Assembly (NCBI GenBank): GCA_001938485.1
Contig: MQRK01238736.1
Span: 47,305 to 100,584, forward strand
DNA length: 53,280 nt
Source: Girardia tigrina
Lineage: Eukaryota
Direction of reading: 5' to 3'
Shown: piece by piece, positions 23,953 through 52,319 of the stretch
How the letters are laid out: each line of letters starts with the position of its first letter
Numbering within the stretch: the stretch's first letter is position 1
Made by a program: the position numbers and the translations under genes
The notes under the pieces: generated by a model
Told to the model about the DNA's origin: nothing
Seen by the model: only the letters and a program-made list of their open reading frames with translations
The model's database searches: none

Positions 23953-25412
23953 ATAGTATCATAAAATACGTTATATTTATTGAGAAAGACATTGTTTTAT
24001 TTCATGAACACTACATTTTCTTTCATATTTTAGTCATTTCGAATTGTTAACAAAATGTTAACACATGCCCCTTTATGTATATATGTATGTTTTACTCAAT
24101 ATAGGGATTCGTGGAGGCTTCATTAAACAAACATACGTTCTCTTGCTAAAAAGTAGCATAGTCCTAAAACGGCTTTCGATTCAATGTTTTCAAAGTAGAG
24201 TTACAGCACTCTAAATGTCAGTTGTTAACAAAATGTTAACACCTGACCGTTGAGGGTTAACAGCGTTCGCTTAATACTTTGATTAATGGGAACCATGAAA
24301 TTGATCTTGTAATATAATTAAATGTAGATAATTGTCCTTGTTTATTTTGTTTAAAATAATTGCTGTTTTTTGCATTATAATTTACCTCATTTCGATTTAC
24401 AGAATTATTTGGAATATATATTCGTTACGATACAATGGTTTTATTGATCCATTCAAACTTTAAATTTTCCTATGAATTTTTTCATTGACTTTGCGAGAAT
24501 TTGCATGGGAAAATATTTATTTTCTTTTCATCATTTGAATATTATGTTCTATAAAATTTTCTATAATAAAATATACATTTTGCAAAAAAAATAAATATTT
24601 TAATCCAAACATCTTTAAATGATAAAAATTAATTTATTGTTATTTTAATTTTTCTGGATGTCCAAAAAAGATTTAACATTATTTCAATCTAAAACATTTG
24701 AATTTTTAAAAAAAAAATAATCACACAATTTTTTTGTATTTCAAATCAGAACAAGAAAAAAAATATTATCACCGACTTTGACATTCAATAGTGAATTCTT
24801 TAGAACTTATCGAATATTATCAGAAATAATTGAAATAATTCAATTACTTTCGATAACGTTAAGAGTTAGAATTTTATTATCTTCATGTGTGCGATTTGTT
24901 AGTAATTTAAACGATGTAAAGTATTGCTTTGTCCTTCAAAAAGTTATCGAAAGTAATAGTTTTTTATCTGTTCTAGAACCGAAATTTATAAAATATTGAT
25001 AAAATTTTGTTCCATTTTTTTAAACATGTAAAAGTCATTTGAAAAAATAATTGAAAAACAATTTCAGTTAATATTGTTTTAATATTCAAAGTAAGCATGG
25101 AAATTTGTAACGTATTCATTTTTAATTTTTCCATTTGTCGGTTTTTTATAATTGTTTTTCTTTATTTTTTTTTAAACAAATGCTTAATTAATAATTATTA
25201 TTTACTACAATATTATTCGATAAAATATATTACATAACAATCAAATTTGATGTGCATTCGCATGCTAAAATACACGCTTCTCTTATACGTGACTCATTAT
25301 CAAATCTAGCATTTTCTATGTGCTTTCAATTAATTATTTATTTGTTTAAGTATTTCTTCTAATGTTTTTTTTCTTTATTTTATGAGATTCAAATTAACTT
25401 GTAGATCAAATC

Positions 25413-27563
25413 ATGTGGCAGAATATTTTTATTGATTTATCAATTAAATTACAATCAAACGCCGACGGTGGAGTGTTTCGCTATCTCTCGAATTATACAG
25501 AAATGTTCAAAATAATGCTCTCCAGTTGGTTAATCAATGTCTATTTGATAGTAATCCCAATTTTTATAATTGTCGCAATCTTTTTATGTTTTCAAAAACT
25601 GAAAAATTGGAATTATTTACATTTCCCTCAGTTGAAGAAAATCCTCCCAATACTATTAACATTTTCTATCGTTTCGGGTTCCGTTGTATTTATCCAATTG
25701 TCAGAAATCAACTCAGATATAAATAAAATTCAAAAATCGATCGATTATTACACGAATCAAATCGTTTTTCAGATCTCTTTATCCATTAACAACACGAAAT
25801 TATCGTTACTTGACACGTTGAAAACGAAAAAATACGATTTATTTCCATTATTTGATAAAATTGTGACAGATATTGTCAAAGTTGCCAATAAAACTGATGG
25901 CAATAAAGGCAAATCGGGTGATTTTTCTCTGCTTTTTTTCGGCAAAAGCAATTCGATGGCCGATATTTTTCAACGCGCCGATCTATACATCAATTCGTCG
26001 ATTTCAATGCGTCATTCACTGCTGAGACTGATGAAAGTTTGTAAAAATAACGGGTTTCACAGGCGCAGATTGTGTGACGAATCGAAACTCGAATGCGAAC
26101 AGTTCTTTTCAAATGTACAAGACATGATCGATTTTTTCATCAAACGTGACGAAACAAATGAAGAATTTATTTATGCTATCGGACAAATTATTCCGGTGGT
26201 GAAAAATGCAGCGAACTCATTTAATTTCACGAAATTCTTAATGGCACCCGATCAATATTACGATTTCGGTGTGAAGAGGATCGATTCTGTATTGACAAAT
26301 CTGATTAATGAAAAAATTCGCGAATCTCTCGATGAAGTGTCCACAAAATACCGTCCGGTTATCGATCAGTATCTACAAATCTTTCAAAAATATGCCAAAT
26401 TCATACTCTATTCAATCGTTACATTGAATCTAATCTATTTAATCTTTATATCGGTGTCTGTCGCTCTCAGTTTCCTCGTTTCTGACCACATAAAACGTCA
26501 ATATTCTTTCTTCTGGTGTGTTTGGAATTGTGTTTTCTTTTTGATTTTCTTTGTCAGTTTAATTTTTCTATTGATTTATGTGACATTGACATCGGCTCTT
26601 TTGAATTCACAAACTGAAGTCTGTCGGTATCTTCGTGATATTAACGAGTCGTCAGCGATCGCAGATCGATTTATTGATTCCTATCTCGATCAAGAGAAAG
26701 AGTATTTACTTTCTAAAGCCATTCCGCCAAATATTCTTTCCATTCCTCGATTGGGTATAAAAAACCCGCGAGGAATTCTAACGACGGTTATTCGTCAATG
26801 CCCGGCACAACGGATTCTCTTACCGAGTTTGAAGTTATATCGGCCGATTAATACAACTGCAATTATCTTTTCCGATTTTTTCGATCATAAAATCGTTAAA
26901 CCGGGTATAATTAAGGCCAATGAAAGTATCTATGAATATTACGAACAAATTATGGATATTTGTAAAGAGATTTTTGAATCCAAATCGAGATTGATGGAGT
27001 ATCAACTTTTAAACTATTTTCCAAAAGACAAAGAAAAATCTTTTTTTGCCTTTCCTCAAATAAAAGCCTCAGTAGATCAATTAAAGGAAAAGCAAGCCGT
27101 CAGTATCAAAGGCCCTGATTTTTATATATTTAAAATCGAGTATCCGATTTTTGAAAAATGCTTTACATTTCTTGATGACTTGACGACTTTCAGAGAAAAC
27201 GAAAGTTTTCTCTATGATTTAATAGACGATATGAAATATTTCGAAGATCTGGTTCGGAACCTGTTCATATTCATTGAGAATCTTAAGATCAATATCGAAA
27301 AAAATGGTGAAATGTTTTTTACCAAATTTATTCAATCGATTGTCCAACCAGTCAAATATCACGTCAACGAGTTATTACAGATTCTCGAAGGGGATATTTT
27401 GTCAAGAATCATTCCATGTGAAGAATTGTCTGGATTTTACATGGAAACTATGGGAATGATTTGTACAAATCAGTTCGGAAATTTTCTAGTCTTTGTGATT
27501 TTCGGGACTCTGACTTTCACTTTTGGCAACTTGGTTTTACTCGTGATCATGATTGCTTACTGA
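25413..27563 (+). CDS. Divergent prominin-like pentaspan membrane glycoprotein (716 aa, single exon)
   Basis: Hydrophobic segments at about aa 40-60, 77-95, 330-356, 366-395 and 692-715, with two large N-glycosylation-bearing loops. There is a Cys after TM4 (QTEVCRYL) and a C..L...Y......IC....GNF motif before TM5, as in prominins. Confidence 0.75.
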   Translation: MWQNIFIDLSIKLQSNADGGVFRYLSNYTEMFKIMLSSWLINVYLIVIPIFIIVAIFLCFQKLKNWNYLHFPQLKKILPILLTFSIVSGSVVFIQLSEINSDINKIQKSIDYYTNQIVFQISLSINNTKLSLLDTLKTKKYDLFPLFDKIVTDIVKVANKTDGNKGKSGDFSLLFFGKSNSMADIFQRADLYINSSISMRHSLLRLMKVCKNNGFHRRRLCDESKLECEQFFSNVQDMIDFFIKRDETNEEFIYAIGQIIPVVKNAANSFNFTKFLMAPDQYYDFGVKRIDSVLTNLINEKIRESLDEVSTKYRPVIDQYLQIFQKYAKFILYSIVTLNLIYLIFISVSVALSFLVSDHIKRQYSFFWCVWNCVFFLIFFVSLIFLLIYVTLTSALLNSQTEVCRYLRDINESSAIADRFIDSYLDQEKEYLLSKAIPPNILSIPRLGIKNPRGILTTVIRQCPAQRILLPSLKLYRPINTTAIIFSDFFDHKIVKPGIIKANESIYEYYEQIMDICKEIFESKSRLMEYQLLNYFPKDKEKSFFAFPQIKASVDQLKEKQAVSIKGPDFYIFKIEYPIFEKCFTFLDDLTTFRENESFLYDLIDDMKYFEDLVRNLFIFIENLKINIEKNGEMFFTKFIQSIVQPVKYHVNELLQILEGDILSRIIPCEELSGFYMETMGMICTNQFGNFLVFVIFGTLTFTFGNLVLLVIMIAY

Positions 27564-29086
27564 GCTCTTTCTTATTTTTTTTTATTTTACAGAATTATCC
27601 ATATCATTTTACGAGACTCTTTTGTAAATAAAATTATTTTTTTGTTGAGTCGTTTTTCAATGGAAGAATAAAAAGAATGGAACGATTAAGAAAAACACGA
27701 TTTAAAAATTTTCAATATGTTTGAAAAAATATTTACTACCAACTTGATGTATTTTAGCTCAAAATAGTTGGAAGTTCTTGGAATTCCTAGATATGAAAAT
27801 GCCGTGGAATGTATTGCAATGAGATCCGATAAATTTGACGCGACACGATATCAAATAGCACTGATATTTTGAAATAAACATTGATTCGATGTTTTCTTAA
27901 ATTGTTGATTTATTTCTTTTAATAAAAGACGAATAAATGATTTTTCTTTAAGGTTGTCTCTAGTATTGGGATTTAAATAGATCACTAAATTTTGCCCAAG
28001 TCGGTTGTCATTTATTGCTTGATTTCATGAATTAAAATTGAAAGAAAATTAACAAATTGAAATGTTTCAATATCAAGTTTTATAATGTATCATAAATATC
28101 TTTTAGTAACGCATATAGCTTTGCGTTACAAATTTTTATTAACAATAATTTTTTTCGTAATTCCATAACCTAATAAAAAAAGATAAAATGTTTACTAAAA
28201 TAAATTTACGTAACTTCAAAAACTGAAAATTCTTTTTCTGGATTTTTTGAACTTACAATAATGTGGTTCTAGTAGAAAATTCAATATTTCTGAGATTATC
28301 ATAATTTTAATATATAAATGAATTTTTAATTTTTTCAATTTTTAAATGTAAGTAATCCTGAACTTTATGTCAAAATAAGATTTAAAAAAATATAAGAATA
28401 AATTTACTTATACTATTAAAATAATATAGTTTTAGCTAAATTTATTTTTTAATTATTTTAATTTATATTTTGAAATTTTTAATAATCACTTACTTTACTA
28501 AAAAATAATATTTAAAAATTTTAATTATCCAAATTTTTAATTTATTAACAAAGAAAAATATTAAAAATAAATATACAAATAAAATTATTGGAAATAAAAA
28601 TTATCAAAATAAATTATATTAAATTATTGAAATAATTTTTTTTAATTTCTTAAAATATATGATAAAATATTTCTATAATAGCAAAATTATTTTAATATAA
28701 GATGCTGCAATTATTAATTGAATCATTAATTTGAGATTTTTGATAAAATTGAAATATAAATAAGAGTTGCTCAAATCATTTGAAGTGCAAATTTCATTAA
28801 TTTTAAAAGAAACTTGTCAAGTTTTCCTAACAAAATAACTAATTTTTGCAAGTTTATCTATTATTTAAAGTAAATTTTGAAATAAGTACAACATATTAGA
28901 CTAGATTGAGTAATGTTTTTCAAAAAATCGTTACATTTTTAAGAAATTGATGTTTTGGATACAAAAATCTACGCTTATCTCTACTATATAAAAATGAATA
29001 TTTTCTATTTACAACTAATATTGTTTTTTGGTATATTCTTCAATTTTGTATGTCTTATACCATCATGTAAGAACGGATAAACTTTC

Positions 29087-29190
29087 TGTGAACGAGAAGG
29101 TCGAAAATAAGAATTTATTTCAATGATAAGATTTACAAACTGTTCGCCAAATTCTGATTATTTAAACAAGTTTTCGACATTTCCATTACA
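29087..29190 (-). repeat. 3' LTR of Gypsy element A
   Basis: Near-identical direct repeat of 38245-38348. On the minus strand it is preceded by the polypurine tract GCAAGAGAGAG. Confidence 0.9.
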
Positions 29191-29499
29191 CTCTCTCTTG
29201 CATTCAAGGCACAAACGCATACGCCTTCTGTGCACTGGAGAGTCTCACTCGGATTTCTCCCACTTTACTGGTGACGGATCGATTGATGTGCACTGAAGAC
29301 ATCTTTTCACCACCCCCTGTACCTGCTTCTCAGTTATTCGCTCTGGACCCCACAATTTCCTCGTCAAGAACATCATCCGCTTCACCCCGAAATATTGAAT
29401 AGGATGGAGTGCCTGCAGACAATCTATCGGCTACCCCTCTCCTTCCATCGTTACTGCCGCCACATTCGGTCGATCATTTAAAGCTATCAGGTAGTCACT

Positions 29500-30721
29500 A
29501 GACACACGAGTGAAACGATCTGCTCGGTTCTCTGCTGAACTGACTAATTTATACTCCATCTGAAGCTACTCCTCTTCTATAGTCTGCTTGATTGTGCAGA
29601 TGCGTCGCTTTACGAGCAGCTCGCTCATTCCACTAGATCTGACCGGTCCATCGCCCCTCGTAGCATATTGTCAACCACCAGAACACAGTGGCGGAGTCGG
29701 TCATAATCTCAATGTTTTTTAATCCCCACTCCTGACTAATGCCTTTATTGCCTCATTAGCCGCTTCAAGTTCTGCCAACTTGATGTGAGGGGCATCATCC
29801 TCGACCACAGCTCCTCCTATCTCTACAGAGATACCTGTCGTGATTGCATTTGCATCATACCACACTCGACCGTATTTTCGGTCGGGTACTTCCCACTTGC
29901 CGTTCATCGGGTCTTCGCTCACGAGCCGTTCCGCCAATTTCTGCGCAATGTCCACTACACACAGTTCTACTGTATTGTCCCAACCGCCTCGATAGGCCAG
30001 CCTTTTTTAAAAAACTGCATGCCGGCCTCAGCCAACCACCGACCGGGAAAAGGCCTACGAGTTGACCGACCCATGAAAATAACTTCCGTCGCGTTAGTCG
30101 CTCCGGTAAAGCCGGTATATTGCCACCGTAGTTCACCGTCAGTCTTCCGCACCGCGAGTCAAAGCCCTCCATTCATCTTTAGCGACGTTTTTGTTTCGAG
30201 TCAGAAGCTATCGAGTACCTCCACCACGCGCTCCACTGAAACTTTGCTGCTGTCCATCATGATATCCTCATAGTACGCATCTGCGGCTTCCGCAATTTGT
30301 GGATCTGACCCGAGCACGTGATCCATGATGCGTCTCATAATTTTGGGGGCCGCGTTCAATCCAAAGCCCAGTCGCGTCAGGCACCACATCTTCCTCTCGT
30401 GGTGGATCACTTGATAGGGCCACAGGCTCAAGTCCACCTTAATTTGGAGAAATGCCTTTCTCAAATCGACTATCTCGAGCGATGACTCCATCTTCCGCAA
30501 TTTGCGCAGCTTTTCAGCGCACACCAGGCTTTCTGCGGTGTGGCTGGACACGAACTCGTTTACGGCTCTGTAGTCTAGCACCGGTCGCACCTTCTCCTTT
30601 GCCGCCTGAACAACCGTCATCAGAGGTAAACTTGCCTTTGCTTTGCCATTAAACTGAATGAACCACCCGTTTTTCTTCCATTCGGACAACTCCTTGCTCA
30701 CCGTTCCTTTGTACTGCTTGA
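29500..30721 (-). pseudogene. Gypsy A pol: RT and RNase H (frameshifted)
   Basis: KVRPVLDYRAVN..VDLRKAFLQI..TRLGFGLNAAPKIM..AYYEDI; TRRKLFSWVGQLVG..PVGGWLRPACSFLK; VWYDANA..G...VVED..HIKLAELEA. Confidence 0.85.
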
Positions 30722-30899
30722 CCAACGCACAGTGCCGGATTTACAGTTTCAAGGGGCCTATGCCAGAAAAAAAGGGGACCTATTTTGAAAAATAAAAAGC
30801 ATGTCTATTTTTGTTTGCAAAAATATAATAGTCGTTTAATTTATCTCAAAATTTTATTTCAATCCAATTTACAAAAATTTTTTCTGTATTTTTCATTGA

Positions 30900-33306
30900 C
30901 AAAATCGTTAATTAATGAATTAAAATCAATTGACCTCATTTTGTCAGCATTACTTGATAATACTGCAACATTATTTAACATTTTTTGGGAAAGAGTTGAT
31001 CGCAAACAATTTTTGTTAATTTTAATTTGGAAAATGACCTCTCTCCGGAACAATTAGATATCATGAAACGCATGAAAATTCTAAGTATTATTTCGGTATT
31101 AGGAAATGTAATATCCATTTGTTTTTCCTTAATAAGTTTATATAAATCCAAATGAGAGAAATGAGGAGCTTCGGTATTGAAATGATCAATCAAATATTTA
31201 TATAGGTGTTCGATTTCTGAACATAAATTTTCGTCAATGTCTTCTGCGTAGTCTTCCACAAGACGATCAACGCAAATCTTTAGTTTATCTTTATTGCTTC
31301 TCGTGTCTATTAAAAATCCAAATTTGTCATTCAATTCATGGCAGCATTGAGCTCTTTCTTTCAAATCTGTAGTGAGATTACTGTCGATTTTTAGGAAAAC
31401 ATTTTTCTTAAATTCTTCACGTGGACTAAACTTAAGTTCCTCTGAACAATTTTCAGCTGGAAGAACATTCATTTTACGGCGTCTCTTTTCAAAATAATCA
31501 GGGTTTGGTAATAACAATGTAGCATGTTGTTCTATTGAATCGAATTTTTCAGTTAATCCAAGAAAATAATCACCAAGAGATGAATAAAGTTCAGAACATG
31601 TATCGAGAGTAATACTAGCATTTTGCAATGATTTAGAAACTGCATTCATTCGTTGTAAAATTTTATCCCAAATTATTGTTTGTATGGAAAATTCAAAAGT
31701 TTCCATTTTTGATAGTAAATTTCCAGCCTCTGCTCTTGCTTTCGTTTCAAAACTTGAACTCTCATTGATTGTAAGTAATGCTTCCATCAATTTGTTGTAG
31801 TTCTGGTAAATACATTTGACTGAGTCAGCATGGACACTCCATCGAGTATTCGATAGCGATTTCAGTGAACTACTTCCTAATTATTCCAAAATATTCCATC
31901 GCTTTGTGGAAGCAGAAAAAAATGTACAGTTCTTGAACAATATCGAAAAAGTTAATTGCTTCGATATTACAATTCATACCAGCCTCTCCTACTAAGTTAA
32001 GAGAATGACCTGAACATGACAAGAATTTTGCAAACTTATTAAGTTCCAAAATTTTAGTTTTCATGCCTTTATATTTTCCAGTCATATTACTCGCGTTATC
32101 ATAAGACTTGCTTCTGCAGTTGCTGATTTCTATGTTCAATATTTCGTTTAATAAGTTTACTGTTACATTTGCTAAATTTTCACCTGTGTGATCATCCATA
32201 TGGATGTAGTTGACAAATCTTTCAATTGGCTCATTGGCTTGATCTATGTACCTCAAAATCACACATAATTGATCTTTGTGAGTCACGTCAGGGGTCGAGT
32301 CTACTGATAAGCCATAATAATTTTAGAACATCATCGCTGATTGATTGTAAAACTTTTCTTGACATCAATACGATCAATTCCTCATATGTAGTCTTTGAGA
32401 GGTAGTTTGTTTTTCCAGAACCAATGTCACCATTTTTATGTGCTCGTTCAAAAAAGGATCAAACTGTGCAATCAAATCTAGCAGGCCGATAAAATTTACG
32501 TTGTTATCTGTCTCAAATTTTTCATTCGAACCTCTAAAAGCTAAGTTTCTTTCAATCAATGTGCAAATTACAGCTGTAACTCTTCTTAGAACCTCTCTCC
32601 AGTAGTTTCGCTCTTTACAAATTTGCTGTAGAGGTCGATCTTTTAAAATGTTGTTGTTTTTTCTATGAAAGTATTCTAAAGAAGCTGTTTTGTGCTCAGT
32701 TGAGTTTTCATGGCTTTTAATCGATGCCACGGAATTTTTCCAATCTTTAAATCCGATTGAAGCTAGAGCAAATTTTTAGGCTTCAAAAAGTTTGCATATA
32801 AAACAGAATACACAACCCAATGTTGGTGAATATATGAGCCATTCTCTATTGAATGTTTCTCCGTTTACTTTTCCCCCCAGAAATAAGTTTTTTGAACAAT
32901 ATCGATCGCGATCTTTATATGTCATTTTAGAAGATTTAAAGTCATTCTCTAAATTTTGACATGCTGACGGACCGCTGTCTATCCAAAATTTTATATCCTC
33001 AGCTGAAAGATTTTCCAAAAGTCCTGGATAACTTTTTCTATTTAGTGGCAAATCTTTTTCGATACCCATCTCCCTATCGAGTTCTGCTTGTTCGATTAAG
33101 GTTTGAGCTACCTCGATTGAACTTTTTAACTTTAAAACATCCGATAAATTAGCTTCTTCACTGATGCCAAAGCATGTAAGATTTGCTGAAGATGATGATT
33201 CTGTTTTTAACAGAAAACTATCGAGCTTTGGATGTTTCTTTATCTTTTCTTCTGTTTCTGCTTTTTTCTTTCTCTTTGAAGCTGTACTATCATAAGTTTT
33301 TTCCAT
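30900..33306 (-). pseudogene. hAT transposase (TTF-type zinc finger, DUF4371 region, hAT dimerisation domain), frameshifted
   Basis: REWLIYSPTLGCVFCFICKLF, HENSTEH, ERNLAFRG, DSTPDVTHKDQLCVILRY, SYDNASNMTG, LSNTRWSVHADS, SNCSGERSFSKLKL. Confidence 0.9.
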
Positions 33307-33460
33307 TTTCTATTTTGTTTCAAATTTATTAATACATATTTTTCAAAAGTTAGTATGTACAGTGGTACACAAAAATGAGTAAATAAAAATATATCGAAAG
33401 CAATATATCGATATATCGATATATTTTTGCAATCCCTACCCAAGTAGTTTGAATGAGATT

Positions 33461-34996: not shown

Positions 34997-35254
34997 TTAA
35001 ACGTACTAAACCACCAACAGATTTGACAATTTAATAAAGCATAGTATGTATCATAGCCTGTAAGCTATATTTTAGTTATTGCATCAAACAGCATTCATCA
35101 AAGTGACTTTATCTGTTCAGAGTCAAGAAATTCGATTGATATTCCTTTTTTCTTGTATACAGTATACTACTCAACATTTTGGGGCCCCTTATTTCGTGGG
35201 GCCCCTAGGACATGGCCTAGTAGGCCTACTTGTAAATCCGGCTCTGCCGACGCG

Positions 35255-35914
35255 TATGCGGCCCATCCCCCAAAGGACTCTGGTGGCTCCTCACAGCTCT
35301 TCCACTTCCATAATGCTGTACCTGAGCGGCCGTCAAACTCGGCTATAAAATCAGAATCGTCAATCCGCGTGTGTGCCGTTTGCTTTGCTCTGCCAACCGC
35401 TGCCTGATATCCAATCCGTCCAAACTTTGGGATGCCGCCTCTCCCAGGCACCCACACGCCCCCAAGTTGGTTGATCGCGTCCATGCCGAGAAGAACCCCC
35501 ATCCTCGACCCGAAAACGTCTGATAACACTAGAACACGGCATTCGATCAGCTTTCCGCTGCACTCAATCGAAAGGGTCGCTCTGAATTGCACGCCCGCCG
35601 CCGACTCGTCGATCATCCGAACAACCTCTTTAACTCGAACCAGCTTTGCCGATGGGACCAACATCCTCTCTACGACTGATTTCGAACATCCTGTGTCGAT
35701 CATTGCCCTTATAGTCCTTCCACACACGTTAACCGGAATGTATACAAGTCGCGCGTCACCGCAACCAGACTCCCACCCGCGCAATAGTGGAAACTCTCTA
35801 TTCCTTTCCCACTTGGTCGATTTTGCGGCGCGGACACCTTGCAATGTGGCCCACTCGACCGCAGCTGATGTATCTGCTCTCCCGTCCATTATCTCGGTTC
35901 GCTGATCGATCGGT
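35255..35914 (-). pseudogene. Gypsy A second zinc knuckle, aspartic protease and RT linker
   Basis: Eroded knuckle YISCGRVGHIARC; VNVCGRTIRAMIDTGCSKSVV...VLLGMDAINQLGGV; IDDSDFIAEFDG..W.WK. Confidence 0.85.
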
Positions 35915-36377
35915 TGTATTATGGGTGTGAGGGATAATTTGAGTTTGTTGTTTGTATGCTGTTTAGATTTGTGACTTTCCTACTCAGATGGGATTGATAT
36001 GTTTATTGATTGATTATTTGAATCTAATGAAATTAATTTAATGATATTAATTTTAAGTACNNNNNNNNNNNNNNNNNNNNNNNNNNNNNNNNNNNNNNNN
36101 NNNNNNNNNNTCAGTAAATAATTTTAACTTATTAAATGTAATATATTTTAAAAATTAATGTTTATTTAAAAAATTATGTAATGACTTTTATCCAATAAAA
36201 ATTATGAGAAATTAAAATTTATTATTAAACTTACCCTTTCATTGTTTTTTTAGATTTGAATATATGAACAAAAAAACTATGTCAATCAAAGAAATATGAC
36301 CAATGAAAATTGTTGTGAAGAAACTGTTTGTGTTGTCAATAAATGTTTGCATTTAAATTGTGATGCTATTAATAATT

Positions 36378-36977
36378 GGCGCTCCGCTTCCCGGTCGCAC
36401 ATTCACGCGCCAAATGACCACTCCCGCCGCAACAATAACATCTCGCTTCTCCTGTATCGGGTGATGGGAACGGTGGTGGTCGATCCAACGGCCGTACAGC
36501 TGCCGCTGTCTCATCAGTGGGTTCACGTCTTGCCTTGATATGCACTCCAGCCAACCGAACCAGGGTTTCCAGATCCAACGTTTTGTTCAGCGCCTCGGCC
36601 TTCAAACATCCTCGATCCAAATGGAAAAATTTATGAACGCCTGAGCCACAAAAGCCTCCCAGTTGCCTCCGTTGCCACAGATGACAACCGCTGACCGCTT
36701 CAAATCAGCCATGAAAACATCAACGCCCTCGCCGGGTGCAAGCCGTCGGGAGGCAAAACTCACCCATGATAGCCTCGGGCTTGGGGTGAACGCTTCTGTA
36801 AGTACGGCTGTGTTCTTCTTAAAATCCTGCCACGTCGCATCACTGAATCCACGGAATACGACTGACGTCTCGCCCGTCAGTGCAAGTGGCAGCATCACCA
36901 GTTTGTTCTCCTTGAGCGTATCCACGCACTCACGGTATCACTCGATCCAAATGGAAAAATTCGAGAGCCTATCATAT
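36378..36977 (-). pseudogene. Gypsy A gag (continues from ATG 38226 across the 36978-38196 insert)
   Basis: MKTLKMVQTY|DRLSNFSIWIE*..LPLALTGE..LTEAF..RRLAPGEGVDVFMADL..RCYCCGGSGHLAREC (CCHC knuckle). Confidence 0.85.
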
Positions 36978-38196: not shown

Positions 38197-38232
38197 ATAT
38201 GTCTGCACCATTTTCAAAGTCTTCATCACAAA

Positions 38233-38244
38233 GTCGCGATAGCC
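38233..38244 (-). promoter_or_regulatory. Non-canonical primer-binding site of Gypsy A (GGCTATCGCGAC, complementary to a tRNA-like 5' end GTCGCGATAGCC)
   Basis: Directly abuts the 5' LTR and has no TGG. The complement fits a 7-nt acceptor strand plus T8-A9-G10-C11-C12. Confidence 0.55.
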
Positions 38245-38348
38245 TGTGAACGAGAAGGTCGAAAATAAGAATTTATTTCAATGACAAGATTTACAAACCG
38301 TTCACCGAATTCTGATTATTTAAACAAGTTTTCGACATTTCCACTACA
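38245..38348 (-). repeat. 5' LTR of Gypsy element A
   Basis: 104-bp TG..CA repeat, flanked by TSD CTTTC at 38349-38353. Confidence 0.9.
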
Positions 38349-40139
38349 CTTTCTATGAGGAAAATTCATGAATTTAGTTTTTGTTGTTGTATGCCTATTT
38401 AGAGTGACGGTTGATTATTGTTTTTAAATTCTTGATATTTGAAAGCAAGTTCATTTTAAAACTTTATATGCTATATAATATAGTTTAATGAAAATAATTT
38501 TTTAATTTAAATCGGTTTACTCGATTGTGATTAATGAGTTCCGGGTATATACTAGTCATTATAAATATGAATATGACTGTTTAACTCAATTTGGATAACT
38601 ATTACTTATATAGGTCCCTTTCAAATCCAGTTAACTAGGTTTCACTGTGCTATATTTTAATTTCTGAGAATTTAATATATAATATTCATTTAATATTTGA
38701 AATGTATTTTTATTTACCATGTATTAAATGAATTAAAATTATTATTATTAAATATATTTTATTTACTGTGGTGTTCAAAAAAAATCATTATAAATAAAAA
38801 TTCAACAAATTAAATGAATATACAAAAATTATTGTTTTTGTTTTACTAAACAAAGTGGGAAACAAATTCAAAAAAATAAGAAATATGGAATCCACCACGA
38901 CCAAAAGCAAAAGCACATCCAGTAACTTCAGCAAACACTCAGTCGTCAAATCAAAATCCCCAAACAGTACACGAGTTTTCAATTCAATGATCATTCCGAT
39001 ATATGCCCCTATTTTGCAGATTCGGTTCGTATTCTCATGTCATGTATCAATATATTTTACGCTCGTTCTATTTGTTTTTTTCTTCCCGTTCCAACGACGG
39101 AAGTTGGTGGTGCAAACTGCATACGCCAAATTTACCAAAAAGTTTTTATTTATTTTTTTTTATTTAAAAATTTATTTCTAAAAATGTATGTTCTTTTGAG
39201 ATGGTTTGGATTCTTCTGAACGATAAAACATTTTCTTCACACCATAAAGAAACTAACATAGAAATATTTCTGTAGTTTCAAAATCACTCTTTCTTAAGGT
39301 TGCAATGAATACATTCACTTTTTTCGTATTAGATTTCCTATATACACTCAGTATACAAACTAAAAAAAAGCAATTATAAAAACAACTTTAATTCAAATAA
39401 ATAAATTATAAAATCAAATTCAATTTTTATTGCACAAATCAGTCATGAAAATTAATATAAAAAAATATTTTTTTTCTAAAAACGACGTTTTCTTGAGTCC
39501 CTTATTATAAAAAAATTAAAGAAATGTGAAAAAACAAATTAAAACTAATCGAAAATCTCAGTTCCAGTTAATATCAATCCGTACATTGAAACACTGAATA
39601 ATTGAAACACCTTGAACTTCTGAGGCTCGTCTGCTATATTGTTTGGAATTCTTTAGATATTCTTTCTTTTATTTAGGAACATTTTAAAAATCAAATCTTT
39701 AGAAACTATTCTAGAGTCGTTTTAATAAAATTTTGTCCTAACAAATATCGTGTTTTCCCATTGTTCAGTCTAAGATTGACGCCTTTAGACTCGTCCATCA
39801 ATCAAGTTCCATAAAAAAATTTCTAAAGAATTATAGGCTTTGCTTTTCTTTTCCTATTTTGTATCGCAAACAAAAACTTATATTTATTTGTGTTTGATTG
39901 TTTATCGTTTCATTTCTTCAAAAAAGAACCTTGTATGTTATTATTACAAAAGTCGACATTCCTCTTTTTATAATAACGATGCATCAGTTATATTAAGATA
40001 AGAATAATTTCACAAAGGGGTGACAGAGTCAAATTCTTTTTCTTTTTAAATCATACAATAATTAATAAACAGATTTAGAAAATTAAATTAAAGAAGATCA
40101 TAAGCCTACAAAGCCACATTAATTTATCTTATATGTATA

Positions 40140-42609
40140 TTATGACTATAAGTTTAAATTTGAAAAAACTAAAGTCAAAGTTTATTGGTAATTTAGAAAT
40201 ATTTTGTTTCATTTATAAAGTATGCACCCATATTATCGATACACTTTTGCCACTTGAGCGGCAGCTTATTGAGGCTATTTGAATAAACAATTAATGGGCA
40301 AGAAGCTATAACATTTTGAAATTGAAATTTTTTTCTATATAAAAAATTGTTTAAATTGAGGAAAAATTAAGTCAGTTGGGGCTAGGTTTTGTGAGTATGA
40401 AGGATGATGTAGAAGTTCTAAATCAAATTCATGTAGTTTTTTCATGGTTTCAAGTGTAATATGTGATTTTGCTTTGTCTTTGAGCAAGATTAGAGTCGAT
40501 TTGTTTATCAAATAATACTATTTTTTGAGTTTCCGCATAATATCTTCCAATAGTTGCAGTAAACATCTGCTGTGATCGACGAACCAAGTTTCATAAAGGC
40601 ATAATAGAATACACCTGCGGCATACCACCAAACACTCACCACCAGTTTCTTTTGATGAATATTGCGCTCTGGACTGTGTTTCGTGCCATCCAGCTTGCTT
40701 AACGTTTGCAATTTTCATATTGGATCCTCTTTTCATCACAAGTGACAATTCAATTCAAAAAGTGATCACATTTATAACGAGAAAGCATCATCAAGCAAGC
40801 ATACAAACGCTTTTGGCCCTGCTTTTCATTAGTGATAGAGGAAGCTGACTCCACGGGCACCTTCAGTTCTTTAATGTCTACCTGCGGTTCTGGGCGACCT
40901 GAGACTCATTATTGAGGTAAAAATTAGCTTTCACAAATTTCCTGAACCAATTTAAGATTATCTGCTAAAAAGTAGCATCTTATCTGAATACACTATTTAT
41001 GTTTTGCATGGCTTCAGATTCTGAGGTTCCACGTAGGAATTTGTACTTCATAGTAATTCAAATTTCTGCCTTTTCCCTTTATTAAAATACTTATTATTAA
41101 AACAAGTTATCAATAATTTTAATTATATTTTATCAATGTATTCAATAGCCAAGATATGTTGTAATCCAGCAAAAAAACTGAGCACCAAAATGTCATTATG
41201 AAATTATAGGGTTGCCTCATAAGTTTTGTCGCACACATATATCTATGTTAACTGCAGATATCCTTGCATCACATAAATAATTCTTATATATTTGCAATCC
41301 CTAATAAAATGTGAATTAGATAAAATAGCATTTGTGATCTACTTATACCCAAAAATTTTTATTTTCTGTTCTAAATGAATTTTTGTTTTAATAAAATAAT
41401 ATCAATTTCGTAAATTTCGCACATTTTCATCATCCTAATGGATTTTAATCGCTCTGATATTCGTAAATTAATTTACTATTGCTGGAAAAGGGATTTAATA
41501 CCTTCACAGATGACTCACGAAATTAACACGGCCTTTGGAGTTGGAACAGTCTCAAAGAGAAAATGTGAAAGGTGGATTTCCAATTTTCGTGAAAACAACT
41601 TTAACACAGACGATCAAGTCCGCGAAGGGCGGCCCTCTCTTGACATAGACGAGAAGATAATCGAGTTTCTGACTGAAGACAAGCTTGTAAAAACGAGAAA
41701 AATTGCAGAGGGAACTGATCAGGATAAAACCACGGTGTCCCGGCACTTGAATGCAATGGGATACCGATACCTAAAAAATTGCTGGGTGCCACACGCTCTG
41801 ATGCAACAGAACAAGGATAATCGCAAAAGAATTTGTCAACAGCTATTGGATAGTTATCACCGGAATGATTTCCTGTCCAAAATCATCACCTGTGATGTGA
41901 TATGGGTGTACTAAGACAACGAAGGCGCTTTCAGCAATAGATCATGGAGAAAATTGGATGAAAACCCACTTGCAACACCAGTACGAAGACTGACAAACCG
42001 AAAGCATCTCGCCTCCGTCTTATGGGACAGTAAAGGACTGCTCTTGTTAGATGTCTTACATCCAAATGCTACAATCAATGCGGATGTCTACTGTACTCAG
42101 CTGGATCGTCTAATTATCACTGTTCAGCAGAGGCGCATTGTTCCATGGAGGACACCACAATTTTCATTATCTCCACGATAATGTTCGTCCGCATACGGAT
42201 GCTAAGACCAAGGACAAGCTGAATACACTTGGATTTACTACCACATCCACCATACTCCCCCGATCTCTCACCATCTGCCTACTATCTATTGTCTCCAATG
42301 AAATCTGCACTTAGAGGAAAGAATTATACAGGTGTCAACGATATCAACGAAGATCTTCTACATTGGTTTGGCAAGAAACCGCGTGATGTTTTCCAAAATG
42401 GGATGCGCAGCCTCCCTGGAAGTTGACTGAGATGTATTGAGCACAATGGCGACTACTTTTTGTATTTGCATGACATGGACGAATGGTAAAATATTTTATA
42501 TTTTATTGTATTTTGGTGTGTTTTTGCGACAAAATTAATGAGGCAACCCTATATAACTATTTGAATTTATGGTAATCATGTCTATAAATTTCATACTTGA
42601 TAACCTAAT
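40140..42609 (-). mobile_element. Old mariner element interrupted by a younger mariner
   Basis: IVTCDEK-like, HQKKLVVSVWWYAAGV..SITADVYC, and HPSYSQNLAPTD motifs. Degenerate TIR-like ends near 40140 and 42585-42609. Confidence 0.65.
41207..42551 (+). mobile_element. Mariner (D,D34D-type) element, full length with disrupted transposase (41438 to ~42490)
   Basis: TIRs TAGGGTTGCCTCAT..TTTTGTCGCA and the reverse complement, with TA TSD. Motifs WVPHAL, IITCD, HDNVRPH and HPPYSPDLSPS. Confidence 0.9.
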
Positions 42610-45373: not shown

Positions 45374-46766
45374 TTAGGTTGGAAACAAAGTTCTCGCACA
45401 AATTTTATTACAACTTTTATATACAACGAAACAATGCAGCAAAAGGCACATATCAATCATCAATGTAATCACCGCTATTTTCGAATACCAGCTTCCAACG
45501 ATGGGGTAGATCATGGATACCTTTGTTGTAAAATTCAACTTGTTTGCTTTTAAGGAAGTTTCCAACTGCGGCTTTCAATTCATCATCAGTTGCGAACGTT
45601 TTGCCACTCAAGAAGTTCTGCAGTGCCTGGAATAAGTGGTAGTCTGTTGGTGCCAGGTCGGGCGAGTACGGTGGCTGAGGGAGAACTTCCCACTCCAGCT
45701 CCAGAAGTTTATCACGGGTGTGATTTGCAACGTGTGGTCGGGCGTTGTCATGAAGAAACATGACATCAGTCAATTCTGGTCGTGTTTGTGCAATCGCGTC
45801 TGCCACTCGTTGCAGTTGTTGATGGACATTGATGGACTGATTGCGTTCCAACATTTTCCAGTGAATCACACCCTTTACTTCCCACCAGACACAAACCATG
45901 AGCTTCTTTTGATGAAGATCGACCTTTGCCTGAGGTTGTGCAGTTGTACCCTTGTCTGTCCAGCTTCTTCTGCGTGTCATGTTCGAGTACAGACAACATT
46001 TCTCATCTACATTAACCAATTTGTTCAGCCAATCTAAACGACGCTTCTTGGACAGTAGTGTCGTACAGGTGCTTATGGGACGTTGAAGATCGAAGTCGGT
46101 TAGTTGGTGTTGGACCCATACGTCCAGTTTGCTGACTTTGCCCATTTCCTCCAAGTGATGCAAAATGGCAGTATGGCTGACGCTAAACTTCTCAGCCAGT
46201 TCACGTGATGTCAGATGTGGATCACTTTCGACACAGGCGCACAAACGGTCATTGTCAATAAGTGAGGATCAACCCCTCCTTGGCTCATCTTTGAGATCGA
46301 TTTGGTCACGCTGAAACTTCTTAAACTAATCGTAAGCTGTGCGTTGGCCAATTGTGCCTTCTCCAAACGCTTGGTTGATACGATTTTCCGAGTGACCAGT
46401 GTTTAGCCCGGACTTGTAATCATACAATAACATGGTACGTTGCTGTTCACGAGAGATAGTCATTTTATCGGCCATATTTGAAAATTTAGATATCTGAAAT
46501 TATGAAAATATACAATTAAAAAATATTACATTTACTTATATATAAATCAATAAAACAATAAATGTATATTGTTGCATTGTTTCGTTGTATATCATTGCGT
46601 TCCAATATTTCCCAGTGAATCACACTCTTTACATCCAACCAGACACAAACCATGAGCTTCTTTTGATGCAGATCGGCCTTTGCCTGAGGTTGTGCAGTTG
46701 TATCCTTGTCTGTCCATCTTAATAAAAGTTAATAAAAGTTGTGCGAGAACTTTGTTTCCAACCTAA
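45374..46766 (-). mobile_element. Mariner element with near-intact transposase
   Basis: TIRs TTAGGTTGGAAACAAAGTTCTCGCACAA and the reverse complement, with TA TSD. Confidence 0.95.
45453..46475 (-). pseudogene. Mariner D,D34D transposase (340 codons, two premature stops near the N-terminus)
   Basis: Single frame from ATG 46475. Motifs WVQHQL, NVDEK, HDNARPH and PYSPDLAPTDYHLF. Confidence 0.9.
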
Positions 46767-48535
46767 TATATTTGTAATATTATTGAATGGTGCCTAACTC
46801 TTCAAGTAGAACACTCTTTTGTGCATATAAGTTGCTTATTATGGAAATATTTGTTATAAATTGCATTTCCAGAAGGTTTTAATTAAAAAGTTTGTTTTCT
46901 AATTTTATACACAATTTAAGGAGTAACATGTTCCTTCACATCATTTGTATTAAAATCTTTCAAATTATATTTTTTCAAAAATATGGAGAATATTTGGAAA
47001 ATTTTTGAATTTTGAAATATTATTATAAATTTATCAAAATTTTGATCATTAAAGTAATAACTCATACAAACAGTAAATGTCAACAATTAAAATATACTAC
47101 TTGACAAATGTATAAATTTGGAAGCTTCCATTTCATTTGTGACATAATCATAAATTATTACACAAAATATTACGTCAATAATGTCAACTTTAAATTATTA
47201 TATTACGACAATTGAAGTGTAATGATGCAGAATTTACGTTCCGGAAGAAACATAATATTATATTAATTACATCGCTTGACATTGAAGTCAAAACCAACAA
47301 GCCAACGGTATTTAAACTTACATTTATGACCGAGTCCTACCTGATCCGACCCTCACACCATCTGGCCAAATACAATAAAAAACTTGTTTACGTTTCATAT
47401 ATTTTAATATTATTCTTAGCTTAAAAGTCGATGTTTAAAATTTATATTATGATTTAATATATATATTTTTATTCAACTCCTTTTTCACTATTTTTCTTTT
47501 ATCTTCATGTTATTGTTGCTAATTACTTCATTAAATATTCATTGTTTTTATTATATAATATTTTATTCTTAAATGCTTCACATTAAAATTAATAATACTA
47601 AAACAAGAAAAAACTATTAAAATATTTTTATGGTAAAATAAAAACATTCAGATATTTATTTTAGATTAAGAGATCTTTCGGGAAGATCTTTATTTATTTG
47701 TGTTGTAAGAACTTAAAGTTCCCATGTTTTGGAACATCTACAAGTCAGATTTAAAATAAATGGAAATATAATATTAATAGTTTCTACTTCCTCATTCTGT
47801 ACATTTGTCCATATATTTATGATGATCAAAAAATTAGAAATTTAATTCTTAATTTTAAAATAAGATATTCCATAAAATGTTCCTAAAAGTCATTCAAAAA
47901 TCAGATTTTTCCGGAAATCGAATTTCCATTCGAAGACATGCGCTACAAACAGGAAGCAGGGGATCCTGTTTTGACATACTTCTCAAGGAATTCGATGAAG
48001 TTGTCAAATAAGACACTTGTAATCCCTATGACATAATACTTAAATAAGGAAAATAATAGCGAATCTAAATGACATTGAACACAATAATGAAATACTATAA
48101 TGAAAATAATATTAATGAAACATCTCGTATATATATAATTTCAGTTAAAATGGTGTTTATTTTAAAATATTTTCTAGAAACAAGAAAGAAAATATGAGGT
48201 TGGTGTAACTGGTTCTGAGTGAAGGGGTGAGAACTTTAATTAAAGTTCTTGGGTTTTATTTTAATTCTTCTGACTTGAGTCGTAAATGAATTACTTAGTT
48301 TAGATAAATTAAATACGAATTCTTAATATTTTAATTATTTTTTTATTTGATAATAATAAAATTACTAATTAATTAAAAATATTTAACGTTAAGACTGCAT
48401 TTCTAATGTGAATCTATGAATAGTTATTGTATTTGTAAACAATTATTCTTAATAGAGTTGTAGAATGAGAAATTAATTTTTGTTTTCCTGAGTTATTGAA
48501 ATAATGAATATATATTTTCCGTCGTTCGAAGTACA

Positions 48536-48547
48536 AGCTATCCGGGC
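48536..48547 (+). promoter_or_regulatory. Non-canonical primer-binding site AGCTATCCGGGC, complementary to nt 1-12 of tRNA-Lys(UUU)
   Basis: The reverse complement GCCCGGATAGCT is the conserved 5' end of animal tRNA-Lys(UUU). It abuts the LTR with zero spacer. Confidence 0.7.
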
Positions 48548-48552
48548 TAAAT

Positions 48553-51500
48553 ATGAACATCAAAATGTTGTTGGCGGTTATTCCCCGATTCGACGGAAAG
48601 TCGATTCCAATCAGAGAATGGATTACGAAGTTAGAAATCATCGCTGGATGTCAGGGAATCTCCGATCCCAAAGAGTGGGCTAAAATCTTGCCATTATTTC
48701 TGGAGGGAGCTGTCTTCAGGATTTATGAAAATATCGACGAGAAGCAGAGAAGCTACGAGCAAGTAATGTCAATTTTAACTAAAGCATTTGATGTAGACGA
48801 CTTCGGCGCATTTGAGCAGTTGCTGGGTCACAAATTGAAAGACGATGAAACCGTTAACGAGTATTGTGCTTCGATTAACGAAATTTCGCGACGTGTGGAA
48901 AATTTATCTTTATGTACCTTTTATAAGGGTCTGCCGACTGATGTCAAAAGGAGATTAGACGAAGCCAGGTTACGTCGCTCCCGGAGATGTTGACGCTGGC
49001 CAGGTAGCTTCTGAAGGTCGAAAAGAGTGTCCAAAGGGACATATCGATGGTCGCGTCTCGAACTAATATCTCGAGGGGGCGTGTTGGGTTCAATCATGGC
49101 AAGGCTAAAGCTCACGGGAGGTCACATGAGTCAGATGACTATGAAGTTAGATTGATGGAAGGAAACCGTCCGAAAGGCTCCTCATCGCCTTCAAAGTCTA
49201 ACATTAGGTGCTTCAGCTGTCTCCAGAAAAGCAGGAATGGTATAAAATGCAAAGCCTGTAATGGTTACGGCCATTCTGCGGGAAACGGGAGCGGGAGTAC
49301 CTCACAGTAGAGGCCGGATGTACTCCTGGAACGAAATTAATTACCAGGTCTCTTTTAATAAACGGCCGTGAGGTGGATGCGTTGATTGATTCATTGTTGT
49401 TGGTAAACCGAGAAAATTGTACTTTTGGATCACAATGATGGATGGCAGCAAAGTCCGAGTATGGAGAGTGAATTTGAGGTAGTAATTAGTGAAGCTAAAT
49501 GCATCACCGGGGTTTGATCGTTGATAGATTGTTCCCGGGATTTAACGCCATCGTTGGTCTCTACGTGATCCAACAGCTGGGAGGTGTAATAATAGATAAA
49601 GAGGCAGTTTTTTGTTGTGAGAAAATGGATTGCATCGCGATTGATGCTTGTGATAGAGAAAGGGTCTACCGATCAAAAATTACTGAGAAGAATTTTGAGG
49701 TATCATACGACCGATGTTGGAGGCTGACATGAAAATGGTCAATAGGCGAGGAACCCAAATTTGATTATCAGTGTGGAAATTACAAGTTAGTAAATCCGTT
49801 AAAGATAAGTTCGAGGAGGTCTTGGAACAGTGGATTGAGAAAGGATTCTTAACATTGTATGATGAACAGAGATTTGGACCTCCTAAGTGCACTATTCCAA
49901 TTTTTCCGGTCATTCAGGTAAATACAGACAAGATCAGACGCGTCTTTGATTTTCGACATATCAATAAGTATGTGGACGTGTACAGTGGTAACTGTGCAGT
50001 TTACTGTGAGAAACTCCTGAAGTGGAGAAAAAAGTCTGGTAAGTGCGCAATGTTGGATTTAAATGACGCGTACGTGCAGGTGTTCGTCGAGGATGAAATG
50101 CTACCGTACCAAACGATGCTATATAAAAATAAGAGATACGCACTAATCAGAATGGGTTTCGGGTTGAATGTGGGCCCAACCGTTATGACTAAAATTGTGG
50201 AGAAGGTCCTGTCGATGAATACCACGATTCATGAAGCTGCCGACGTGTATAGACAATATTTTCGTGAACGAAAGTATATTACCAGTAGATAGGTTCAAAG
50301 AGCATTTGTTAAAGTATGGATTAGTCTCAAAAGATCCAGAGAGATTTCAACAAGAAACATCTGTGAGAGTGTTGTGATTGGAAGTGCTTCGAGACAATCA
50401 TGGTGCGCTTCTCTGGAGACGTTGAAACAGATTGCTTTTAGACCTTAACGAGGTCAAAACTAGGCGTGATCTTTATTCCTTCAGTGGCCAAATAACCGGA
50501 ATAAACCCAGTCTGTGGATGGTTACGCGTTGCGACGTCGTTTCTTAAACTCCAATCTACCGGAAATTGGGACAGACCGATCCATGAAGAGTTGAAGAAAG
50601 CGATGGGAGACATGGTAGAAAGAATAAAGGAAAATGATTGCTCCAGTGGGACTTGGTCTGTGAAAGATGATATCAAAGCTATTCTTTGATGTGATGCCAG
50701 TACGTTGGCAATGGGCGTTTGTTTAGATGTTGATGGACAGAGAATTGAGGATGCTTCTTGGCTTCGTAAAGTCAATGACTGTCGACACATCTATCTAGTT
50801 GAGTTAGAAGCGGTTGTGAAGGGGTTAAACTTAGTGATTTCATGGGGTTTTTCGGACATTGAGTTGAGACTCGACAGTCAGGTTGTTTGTGGATGGATAT
50901 CGAATGTGATCAATAACGTGCAAAGAAACAAAATTAAGGCGGTTCCTGAGCTATTGATTTGTAGAAGACTTAATCTGCTCAAAGATATTGTTTTAGAATA
51001 TAATTTGAAGCTGTGTGTGGTCTACTTTAGGTCTGAGATGAATGATACCGACATCTTAACGAGAATCACTTCACAATGGTCTTTTTTAAGTCGCTCCACG
51101 GAAGGTTGTAACGTTCTTTCGGCTTCATTAGAATCGGATATCGAAAGATTTAATCAAATTCATGACAGAACGCATATGGGACTCCAGAGATCGATTTTCC
51201 TAGCGAAGGAGTTCAAAGTTAAAATCAGTGATGAAACATATCGGCAAATCATACTTCATTGTAACCGATGCCAATCTATCGATCCCGCACCGGTTCGATG
51301 GGAAAAATGGAGTTTGGATGTTGCCGAAACTTGGAAAAGAATTGCAATTGATGTCACGAAGTTCGAGGAGTCAAGGTTTCTCACCATCATTGACTGTGGA
51401 CCATCGCGATTTGCTATCTGGAGACTCATTAGAGATGAAGGAGCGCAGGAAGTCATTAAGAATTTGAGAAATGTATTCTTCGAACGTGGAGCCCCTGTTG

Positions 51501-52090
51501 AATTGTTAGCGGATAATTATGCGTCTTTTCATTCCGAATCTTTTACTGCTGAGATGAAGGCCCGGAATATTAATGTAGTGTATCGAGCCATGAACAGACC
51601 AATTTGGAATGGAATTATTGAAAGGAGCCACTGGACCGTCAAGGAGTTAACCGCGAGAGCTGAAAATGGGATCCTGGAAGCGGTTTACTTGATGAATAAC
51701 ACTCCCGGAATAAACGATAAGCCACCAGTCAAATTTTTTTAGGGGTATAAGTCTCGGTTGAAGTTGATCGGTATCTCAACCGATCAAGCAAGTAATGGAA
51801 CCTTTTGTTCAATTAAGTTCAGGGTTGGAGAAAACGTTTGGGTGAAATCAAACCAGATCCAGCGCTGTAATGAAAGATGGACAGAAGGAGTCATTAAAGA
51901 AGGAATTAGTCCTCTTAAATTTCTTGCTCTCCATCAGAAATGTTGATTCGTTGCGTAATCTCATTGACCTAAGACCGCGATCCGAGTTGATTGTCTCGAA
52001 GCTGAGCGATTCTCCTCATCGTGCTGACGACTCACCGAGCGATCATCCAATCATGGTTCCAGTTGACACGGAATCATTTGTCCGAGAGTG
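48553..52090 (+). pseudogene. Gypsy B gag-pol (frameshifted, premature stops)
   Basis: IPRFDG..EWITKLE..LPLFLEGAVF (gag), CKACNGYGH knuckle, DALIDS protease, KIRRVFDFR..LDLNDAYVQV..RMGFGLNVGP (RT), CDASTLAMG..EDASWLR..ELEAVVKG (RNase H), H..HMG..C..C and IAIDVT..LADN..NGIIER (integrase). Confidence 0.9.
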
Positions 52091-52319
52091 ACCACCGCCA
52101 ACGAGATTTCAGGACTGTCTCATGGAACGATTTAGATTTTTATGAATCTAGGGGAGATGTGGAATGAGACATATTAATTTTTGTTTTTTTAAGTTATTGA
52201 AATAATAAATATATATTTTCGTCGTTCGAAGTACAAGAGTCTTTTCAATTTATAAGGTTTAATCTTTGCATGATATGCGAGGATACCAAACATAATTTGA
52301 TCCAATATATCTACTTTTA

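Follow-up and report, generated by a model that had tools for sequence, protein, structure and literature searches.

LTR retrotransposons of Girardia tigrina carry, immediately behind the 5′ LTR, a 12-nt site complementary to the 5′ end of a host tRNA, i.e., to its nucleotides 1–12. The sequence of the site, its register, the identity of the tRNA, and the spread of the site across the clade to which these elements belong, a widespread and poorly classified group in animals, are direct observations. Sequence comparison makes it probable that the 12 bases are the primer-binding site and that tRNA nt 1–12 prime minus-strand DNA synthesis. The priming modes described for LTR elements use the 3′ end of a tRNA, a tRNA cut at the anticodon, or the element's own RNA (passages in PMC10886601, PMC5371799, PMC4600332, PMC7472051, PMC12471100, PMC11673190, and PMC12440569; further passages on the same topics in PMC13524379, PMC7038984, PMC4408406, and PMC5348765). 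The geometry reported here is real, clade-wide, and apparently undescribed: within the literature searched, whose scope left out Repbase Reports, GyDB, and subscription journals, no paper was found that describes a site for tRNA nt 1–12, no mention of DUF7047 was found, and the 12-mers turned up only in listings unrelated to retrotransposons. There is a smaller but real chance that the geometry has been noted before somewhere in print.

The window, by which we mean the whole 53,280-nt stretch of DNA analyzed here, contains two such elements, A on the minus and B on the plus strand (Table 1). Exactly as the earlier note had read it, the LTR of element A (38348–38245) runs directly into GGCTATCGCGAC (38244–38233), followed by the six nucleotides TTTGTG and the gag ATG at 38226. 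The LTRs of A and B are indeed unlike, sharing only a 19-nt AT-rich local match. An insert of about 1.2 kb, partly N, splits gag of element A within its N-terminus, and gag resumes near 36960; a 5-bp duplication around this insert was an early reading and is wrong. Element A also harbors other inserts (30730–33450, minus strand, and 35170–35240), among them a decayed hAT-like transposon. Outside the two elements, the window holds an ORF of 721 aa, uninterrupted and without a Pfam match, that contains several hydrophobic stretches (25398–27563, plus strand), Mariner-type transposase remnants (41414–41914, plus strand, and 45453–46720), and a 305-aa ORF (2805–3722, minus strand) with a weak match, below cut-off, to the RnlA DBD Pfam model.

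Table 1. Coordinates of elements A and B within the window.
Feature	Position	Strand	Remark
Element A 5′ LTR, 104 nt, TG...CA ends	38245–38348	−	95% identity to 3′ LTR
Element A putative primer-binding site, no spacer after LTR	38233–38244	−	GGCTATCGCGAC, decayed copy, by sequence comparison, of the complement of tRNA-Phe(GAA) nt 1–12
Element A gag ATG (38226) plus the codons next to it	38197–38226	−	family's gag N-terminus
Element A remainder of gag, broken, with CCHC zinc knuckle	36369–36960	−	
Element A ORF, aspartyl protease domain	35167–35979	−	
Element A reverse transcriptase remnant, RLGFG motif	30201–30740	−	298 relatives found
Element A broken thumb (DUF7047), RNase H, start of integrase region	29202–30200	−	read by eye against intact relatives
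Element A short purine-rich tract preceding 3′ LTR	29191–29201	−	from sequence
Element A 3′ LTR	29087–29190	−	95% identical to 5′ LTR
Element A 5-bp target duplication GAAAG	29082–29086 and 38349–38353		flanks both element ends
Element B, whole	48459–52235	+	layout as element A
Element B 5′ LTR, 77 nt, TG...CA	48459–48535	+	
Element B putative primer-binding site AGCTATCCGGGC	48536–48547	+	exact complement of host tRNA-Lys(UUU) nt 1–12
Element B gag ATG	48553	+	
Element B RT remnant (49765–50292) and RNase H-integrase ORF (50690–51742)	49765–51742	+	
Element B 3′ LTR	52158–52235	+	5-bp target duplication AGAGT

Intact tRNA-Lys(ttt) genes of the host begin with the complement of the element B site. 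The site is the Watson–Crick complement of the tRNA 5′ strand, and the acceptor 3′ strand of the gene differs from it at a G-U pair; thus, the Lys site complements the 5′ strand and is no copy of the acceptor 3′ strand.

For element A, the window's own 12-mer is misleading. A host tRNA starting GTCGCGATAGCC, as the earlier note had predicted, does not emerge from the 1.43-Gb genome: the exact 12-mer has 21 matches against 14 for its reversed control, which is chance level, and none of the 21 falls in a tRNA gene. The family, however, points to a tRNA within two mismatches of the predicted start. We searched with LTR plus site, scored 40 of 252 candidates, and fetched 30 loci, which yielded 28 other 5′ ends of family A. 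Their commonest site, AGCTATCGCGGC, is exact in 8 of the 28 copies and is the exact complement of nt 1–12 of host tRNA-Phe(GAA); position by position, 21–28 of the 28 copies agree with this complement. The window copy departs from the commonest form at site positions 1 and 11, where the other copies have A (27/28) and G (24/28), respectively. The difference at position 1 also appears in the contigs of run X2 (6385/6616 depth units), where position 11 (38234) has no row. Judged against its family, GGCTATCGCGAC in the window is a decayed copy of the family site. Consequently, of the tRNA-like reading first given to its complement, the 5′-end register stands, whereas two of the letters taken for tRNA features are decay in this one copy. 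The expectation that A uses a tRNA other than that of B in the same 5′-end geometry was right: the tRNAs are tRNA-Phe and tRNA-Lys, each facing the site with nt 1–12.

Pattern searches of the assembly found only interrupted copies of the tRNA-Phe gene, and its sequence was read from two overlapping pieces. It begins with GCCGCGATAGCT; extended by CAGT, this string occurs four times in the genome, each time as the first 27–31 nt of a tRNA-Phe, and a pattern for the anticodon arm found three places, each with only the 3′ part. Contig C181207 has the two pieces on either side of a 1770-nt insert, with an overlap of 16 nt; when they are joined, the result is a tRNA-Phe(gaa) fold whose acceptor stem is perfect. 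Either the assembly is incomplete at the intact gene or the search patterns missed it. The Rfam tRNA search scored 63 of 57,303 candidates and is thus no tRNA census. The split loci look like the work of a repeat whose specific target is the tRNA-Phe gene: in C181207:89–1947 (L111, L143), the 1770-nt insert has an AT-rich tail and duplicates 16 nt (tRNA nt 16–31), and L109, L110, L112, L144, and L145 contain only a 5′ or a 3′ piece, broken at the same places.

Both site types are strongly enriched in the genome. The tRNA-Phe-type 12-mer occurs 1122 times against 8 for the control, and CA plus the tRNA-Lys-type 12-mer 2183 times against 0. Reading the first 30 loci of each type, we found that all 30 Phe-type loci are element-type, with the site in no tRNA gene, CA in front of it in 28, and a gag-like ATG mostly within 12 nt. 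These Phe-type sites sit behind 14 unrelated upstream sequences and one contig-end stub, while the 30 Lys-type loci form seven groups. In neither sample (30 + 30 loci) do the flanking bases extend the pairing with the tRNA beyond the 12-mer on either side. A broader pattern that also allows the 5′ ends of host tRNA-Thr and tRNA-Met gave 3862 matches, the first 100 of which, counted by hand, comprise 57 Lys-type and 20 Phe-type sites, 20 within one or two changes of these types, and 3 others; none is of tRNA-Thr or tRNA-Met type.

Sites of the same kind occur in metagenome relatives. With the RT of element A as query, we obtained 298 relatives, nearly all carrying PF23088/DUF7047; the named ones, from Macrosteles, Trichuris, Amphibalanus, and Chionoecetes, are Pol sequences alone. 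An alignment of 34 relatives retrieved 79 metagenome loci from the best 80 of 107 confirmed; 59 of these have a gag start, and 55 have enough upstream DNA. A strict site lies within 140 nt of gag in 46 of the 55 (44 distinct) and at 209–271 nt in three more, giving 49/55, and the remaining six have a near-match, compared with 2 of 746 control windows. Together with the genome counts, this bears out the view that the geometry is a clade-wide trait and not chance. CA precedes the strict site in 43 of the 46, and the first ATG follows at a distance of 0–43 nt. For A, B, L159, L165, and L210, a pair of LTRs shows that the LTR ends at the site; at most loci, CA and gag, rather than an LTR pair, are what indicates the LTR end. 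The site spans exactly tRNA nt 1–12 and adjoins the LTR end. In many of the L146–L224 contigs, gag comes after pol through circular permutation, which may reflect collapse of the LTRs in assembly or one-LTR circles, and L152:1830–1950 has a tRNA-like sequence with a T run between primer site and gag that received no ARAGORN call.

Variation of the site is limited to what tRNA 5′ ends allow. Its complement in the relatives begins GCCGCGA (12 loci), GCCTAGA (11), GCCGAAA (8), GCCGTGA (8), or GCCCGGA (2), next to variants found once, one of which ends TAGCG like host tRNA-Met. One variant, GCCGAAATAGCT, equals the 5′ end of Drosophila tRNA-Phe as given in a probe passage of PMC7038984. For GCCTAGA, GCCGTGA, and the rarer variants, isotypes are suggested by resemblance. 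Phage tRNAs of several isotypes share the starting letters of the foreign variants, tRNAs on viral contigs settled no isotype for them, and no related loci were found in viral contigs. All 46 strict sites in the relatives face A at tRNA position 9, though G was allowed; a block of the pairing by m1G9 is, we presume, a possible reason.

On the RT tree (63 rows, restricted to those with a G-starting site), the site type changes between Phe-like and Lys-like at least four times, and the three Phe variants change nine times. The gag tree, weak with 8 starred of 54 branches, places host families on at least two to three separate branches, and the two commonest foreign variants occur only twice each in the host genome, among 11 matches. 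Since the types change on the RT tree, and since foreign variants are rare in the host genome despite families on several branches, the site appears to track the tRNA of its host rather than the descent of the element.

We propose the following sequence of events. The element RNA would invade the acceptor and D stems and pair with tRNA nt 1–12, probably aided by the zinc knuckle of Gag, and a cut between tRNA nt 12 and 13 would free a 3′-OH. RT would extend from this 3′-OH of nt 12, which would fix the LTR end without a spacer, and plus-strand synthesis would copy the entire 12-nt primer. Copying of the primer would explain both why the site stops at tRNA nt 1 and why it follows the host tRNA variant. 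The 3′ end of the minus-strand primer sets the U5 end of the LTR. Since the site keeps its place relative to the LTR end but not relative to the ATG, the primer 3′ end should face tRNA nt 12, and we infer that a cut or trimming is needed. Predicted RNA dimers form at least 11 of the 12 pairs with the cognate tRNA in 26/27 and 22/23 loci (0 with the other tRNA) in a folding model that takes in neither tRNA tertiary structure nor modifications, and the window's copy of element A forms 0 of 12 pairs in this model. Reported 5′ tRNA fragments are usually longer than 12 nt, which counts against a primer of this length. Ty1 and Ty3 inherit their primer site without copying the tRNA (passage in PMC7472051); thus, the plus-strand copying step may not hold, and it may be selection that keeps the site matched to the host tRNA.

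By analogy with Tf1, whose RNase H cuts an RNA duplex (Levin 1996, by its title in the reference list of PMC4600332), the element's own RNase H is the likeliest agent of the cut in the RNA:RNA duplex, at about even odds; otherwise, a host nuclease, or trimming of a 5′ tRNA fragment, may provide the end. The catalytic residues D, E, D, and D of the RNase H are retained in 44–45 of 45 relatives.

Pairing to nt 1–12 would also free the 3′ acceptor strand, and bipartite sites occur in Ty1 and Ty3 (passage in PMC5371799). The site could then capture and unfold the tRNA by its 5′ end, with the freed CCA end priming at a second site, in a reverse Ty3-like arrangement. However, a search of 250 nt upstream and 300 nt downstream in 30 + 24 host and 31 + 16 metagenome elements revealed no conserved complement of tRNA nt 13–76, the largest excesses being 5/30, at two positions. 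Complements of the tRNA 3′ end are only scattered (9 and 6 of 79 contigs), and the LTR end coincides exactly with the pairing of nt 12, so that we consider this route highly unlikely. Quite improbable, too, is a role of the site in regulating gag translation or RNA packaging via the tRNA or a 5′ tRNA fragment, with minus-strand priming by another route. The ATG does follow 0–13 nt after the site in most elements, but it is the LTR end, not the ATG, to which the site is tied: the distance to the ATG varies from 0 to 43 nt, and in three loci the gag match lies more than 200 nt away; moreover, no other primer site is present.

If the primer were instead the 3′ end of another small RNA, such as a tRNA-derived SINE or an unannotated RNA ending in the 12 bases, its natural 3′ end would need no cut, and truncated tRNA-Phe heads are present in the assembly. 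These heads run to nt 27–31 and not to 12, and parallel Phe-, Lys-, and Met-like RNAs ending at nt 12 would be required in many unrelated hosts, which makes this source very improbable. Priming of the Tf1 type, in which the element's own RNA supplies the primer from its 5′ end and the tRNA likeness is incidental, would be similar in the position of the primer and in its length, which is 11 nt in Tf1. Self-priming is described from fungi to vertebrates (passage in PMC4600332), but for the present elements it is largely refuted and barely credible: the best self-primer candidate in the 400 nt upstream never has fewer than three mismatches in the host loci examined (22, 29, and 30), candidates in the metagenome contigs have three to four except in L182 (one) and L207 (two), both far from the LTR, and one site is common to unrelated LTRs.

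Priming by tRNA nt 1–12 therefore has to be set against the known modes that it most resembles. Like canonical tRNA 3′-end priming in retroviruses, most Gypsy elements, Ty1, and Ty3, it would use a host tRNA and a 12-nt site that follows the 5′ LTR; in contrast, there is no TGG and no pairing with CCA, and the opposite end of the tRNA is engaged. Neither in host nor in metagenome loci did we find the LTR followed by a complement of the tRNA CCA end that begins with TGG. In half-tRNA priming (Drosophila copia, yeast Ty5, fungal Copia, Helenus), a 3′-truncated host tRNA likewise pairs with a site after the LTR, and the families likewise switch tRNA type (passages in PMC10886601 and PMC5371799). 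Those sites, however, are found in Copia and engage the anticodon arm, whereas the present ones face nt 1–12 (acceptor 5′ strand to D stem) in elements of PR-RT-RH-IN order. The present site does not face the anticodon arm, and the 250 nt upstream and 300 nt downstream show no enrichment for complements of tRNA nt 13–76. With Tf1 and Tj1 of Schizosaccharomyces (Tf1/sushi group), they would share a short primer from an RNA 5′ end, annealed beside the LTR and freed by a cut (passage in PMC4600332); here, the donor would be a host tRNA acting in trans, and the element contains no self-complementary copy.

The earlier note had placed the elements under the Gypsy label, as independent families. A and B are different families but one lineage: their RTs fall in one clade with DUF7047 on a single long branch (SH-aLRT 92). 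This clade is separate from the Gypsy RTs (10) and the BEL RTs (5) taken from the same genome and is about equally distant from the two groups, at about 23% and 27% identity; they are a small reference set without DIRS, Copia, or Troyka rows in which the long branch calls for caution. The PR-RT-RH-IN order after gag, the TG...CA LTRs, and the 5-bp duplications fit Ty3/Gypsy (Metaviridae; 4–6 bp) or BEL and are not diagnostic. RNase H profiles of Gypsy and BEL type mostly find no match in the clade: the Gypsy-type profiles PF17917 and PF17919 match weakly in 5/45 and 1/45, compared with 45/45 for RVT_3, PF05380 (BEL/Pao, Belpaoviridae) is absent from the profile matches, and the RT branch is separate from BEL. 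On these sequence grounds, the Gypsy assignment is not supported. Troyka (Kuafuorterviruses) is, similarly, an animal LTR lineage first filed under Gypsy and later separated (passages in PMC12440569 and PMC11673190). Membership in it was rejected on the LTR ends (CG...CG in Troyka, TG...CA in the clade), the duplication length (3 bp against 5 bp), and the motif (I/V/LADD against Y/FxDD, the latter in 34/34). The clade's invariant GFG-L stretch is absent from the text of the 418-RT panel of PMC11673190, in which gaps or an incomplete file could hide it. Saci2/lennie, which has 4-bp duplications and no clade motifs in its supplement, was considered, but no link to the clade emerged.

The RNase H of the clade appears nearest to archaeal-type RNase HI in profile and modeled fold. 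The RnaseHI_Halo profile matches 36/45, all far below the curated cut-off, and the top Foldseek matches are Halobacterium, Rv2228c, and Sulfolobus RNase HI (TM 0.6–0.7), with human RNase H close behind. Some archaeal-type RNase HI enzymes presumably cut double-stranded RNA. The archaeal-type (aRNH) group is defined by an arginine at the fourth active-site position (passage in PMC5348765); aligned by eye, the clade has Ser (41/45) or Thr (4/45) there, and no Arg. Whole-Pol fold searches returned generic retroviral and caulimoviral matches at 10–18% identity, and the first ESM Atlas matches, euglenozoan and mollusc RT clusters, are a lead only. By eye, motifs of the clade resemble DIRS rows, and the clade carries a DDE integrase. 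Four tyrosine-recombinase matches occur in the genome, Crypton-like in the two with ORFs listed; L375–L378 are stand-alone, Crypton-like tyrosine-recombinase ORFs.

Only tentatively, and as somewhat short of likely, do we suggest that the DUF7047 elements form an unrecognized, superfamily-level lineage of animal LTR elements whose RNase H generates the primer by cutting a host tRNA (Phe, Lys, or Met) behind nt 12 in an RNA:RNA duplex. Their priming would then be a fourth mode, equivalent to Tf1 self-priming carried out in trans, which might connect tRNA priming with self-priming.

If priming by tRNA nt 1–12 is true, it would be a fourth way to prime LTR reverse transcription, conserved across a lineage that has members in insects, crustaceans, and nematodes (the named members being known from Pol alone) and thousands of copies in the host genome. 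Pipelines that seek only tRNA 3′ ends, such as that in a passage of PMC13524379, would score such elements as lacking a primer site. Such priming would further predict that a discrete tRNA product of 12 nt exists and that some activity cuts the tRNA; tRNA fragments from the 5′ end, rather than the 3′ end, might then control these elements.
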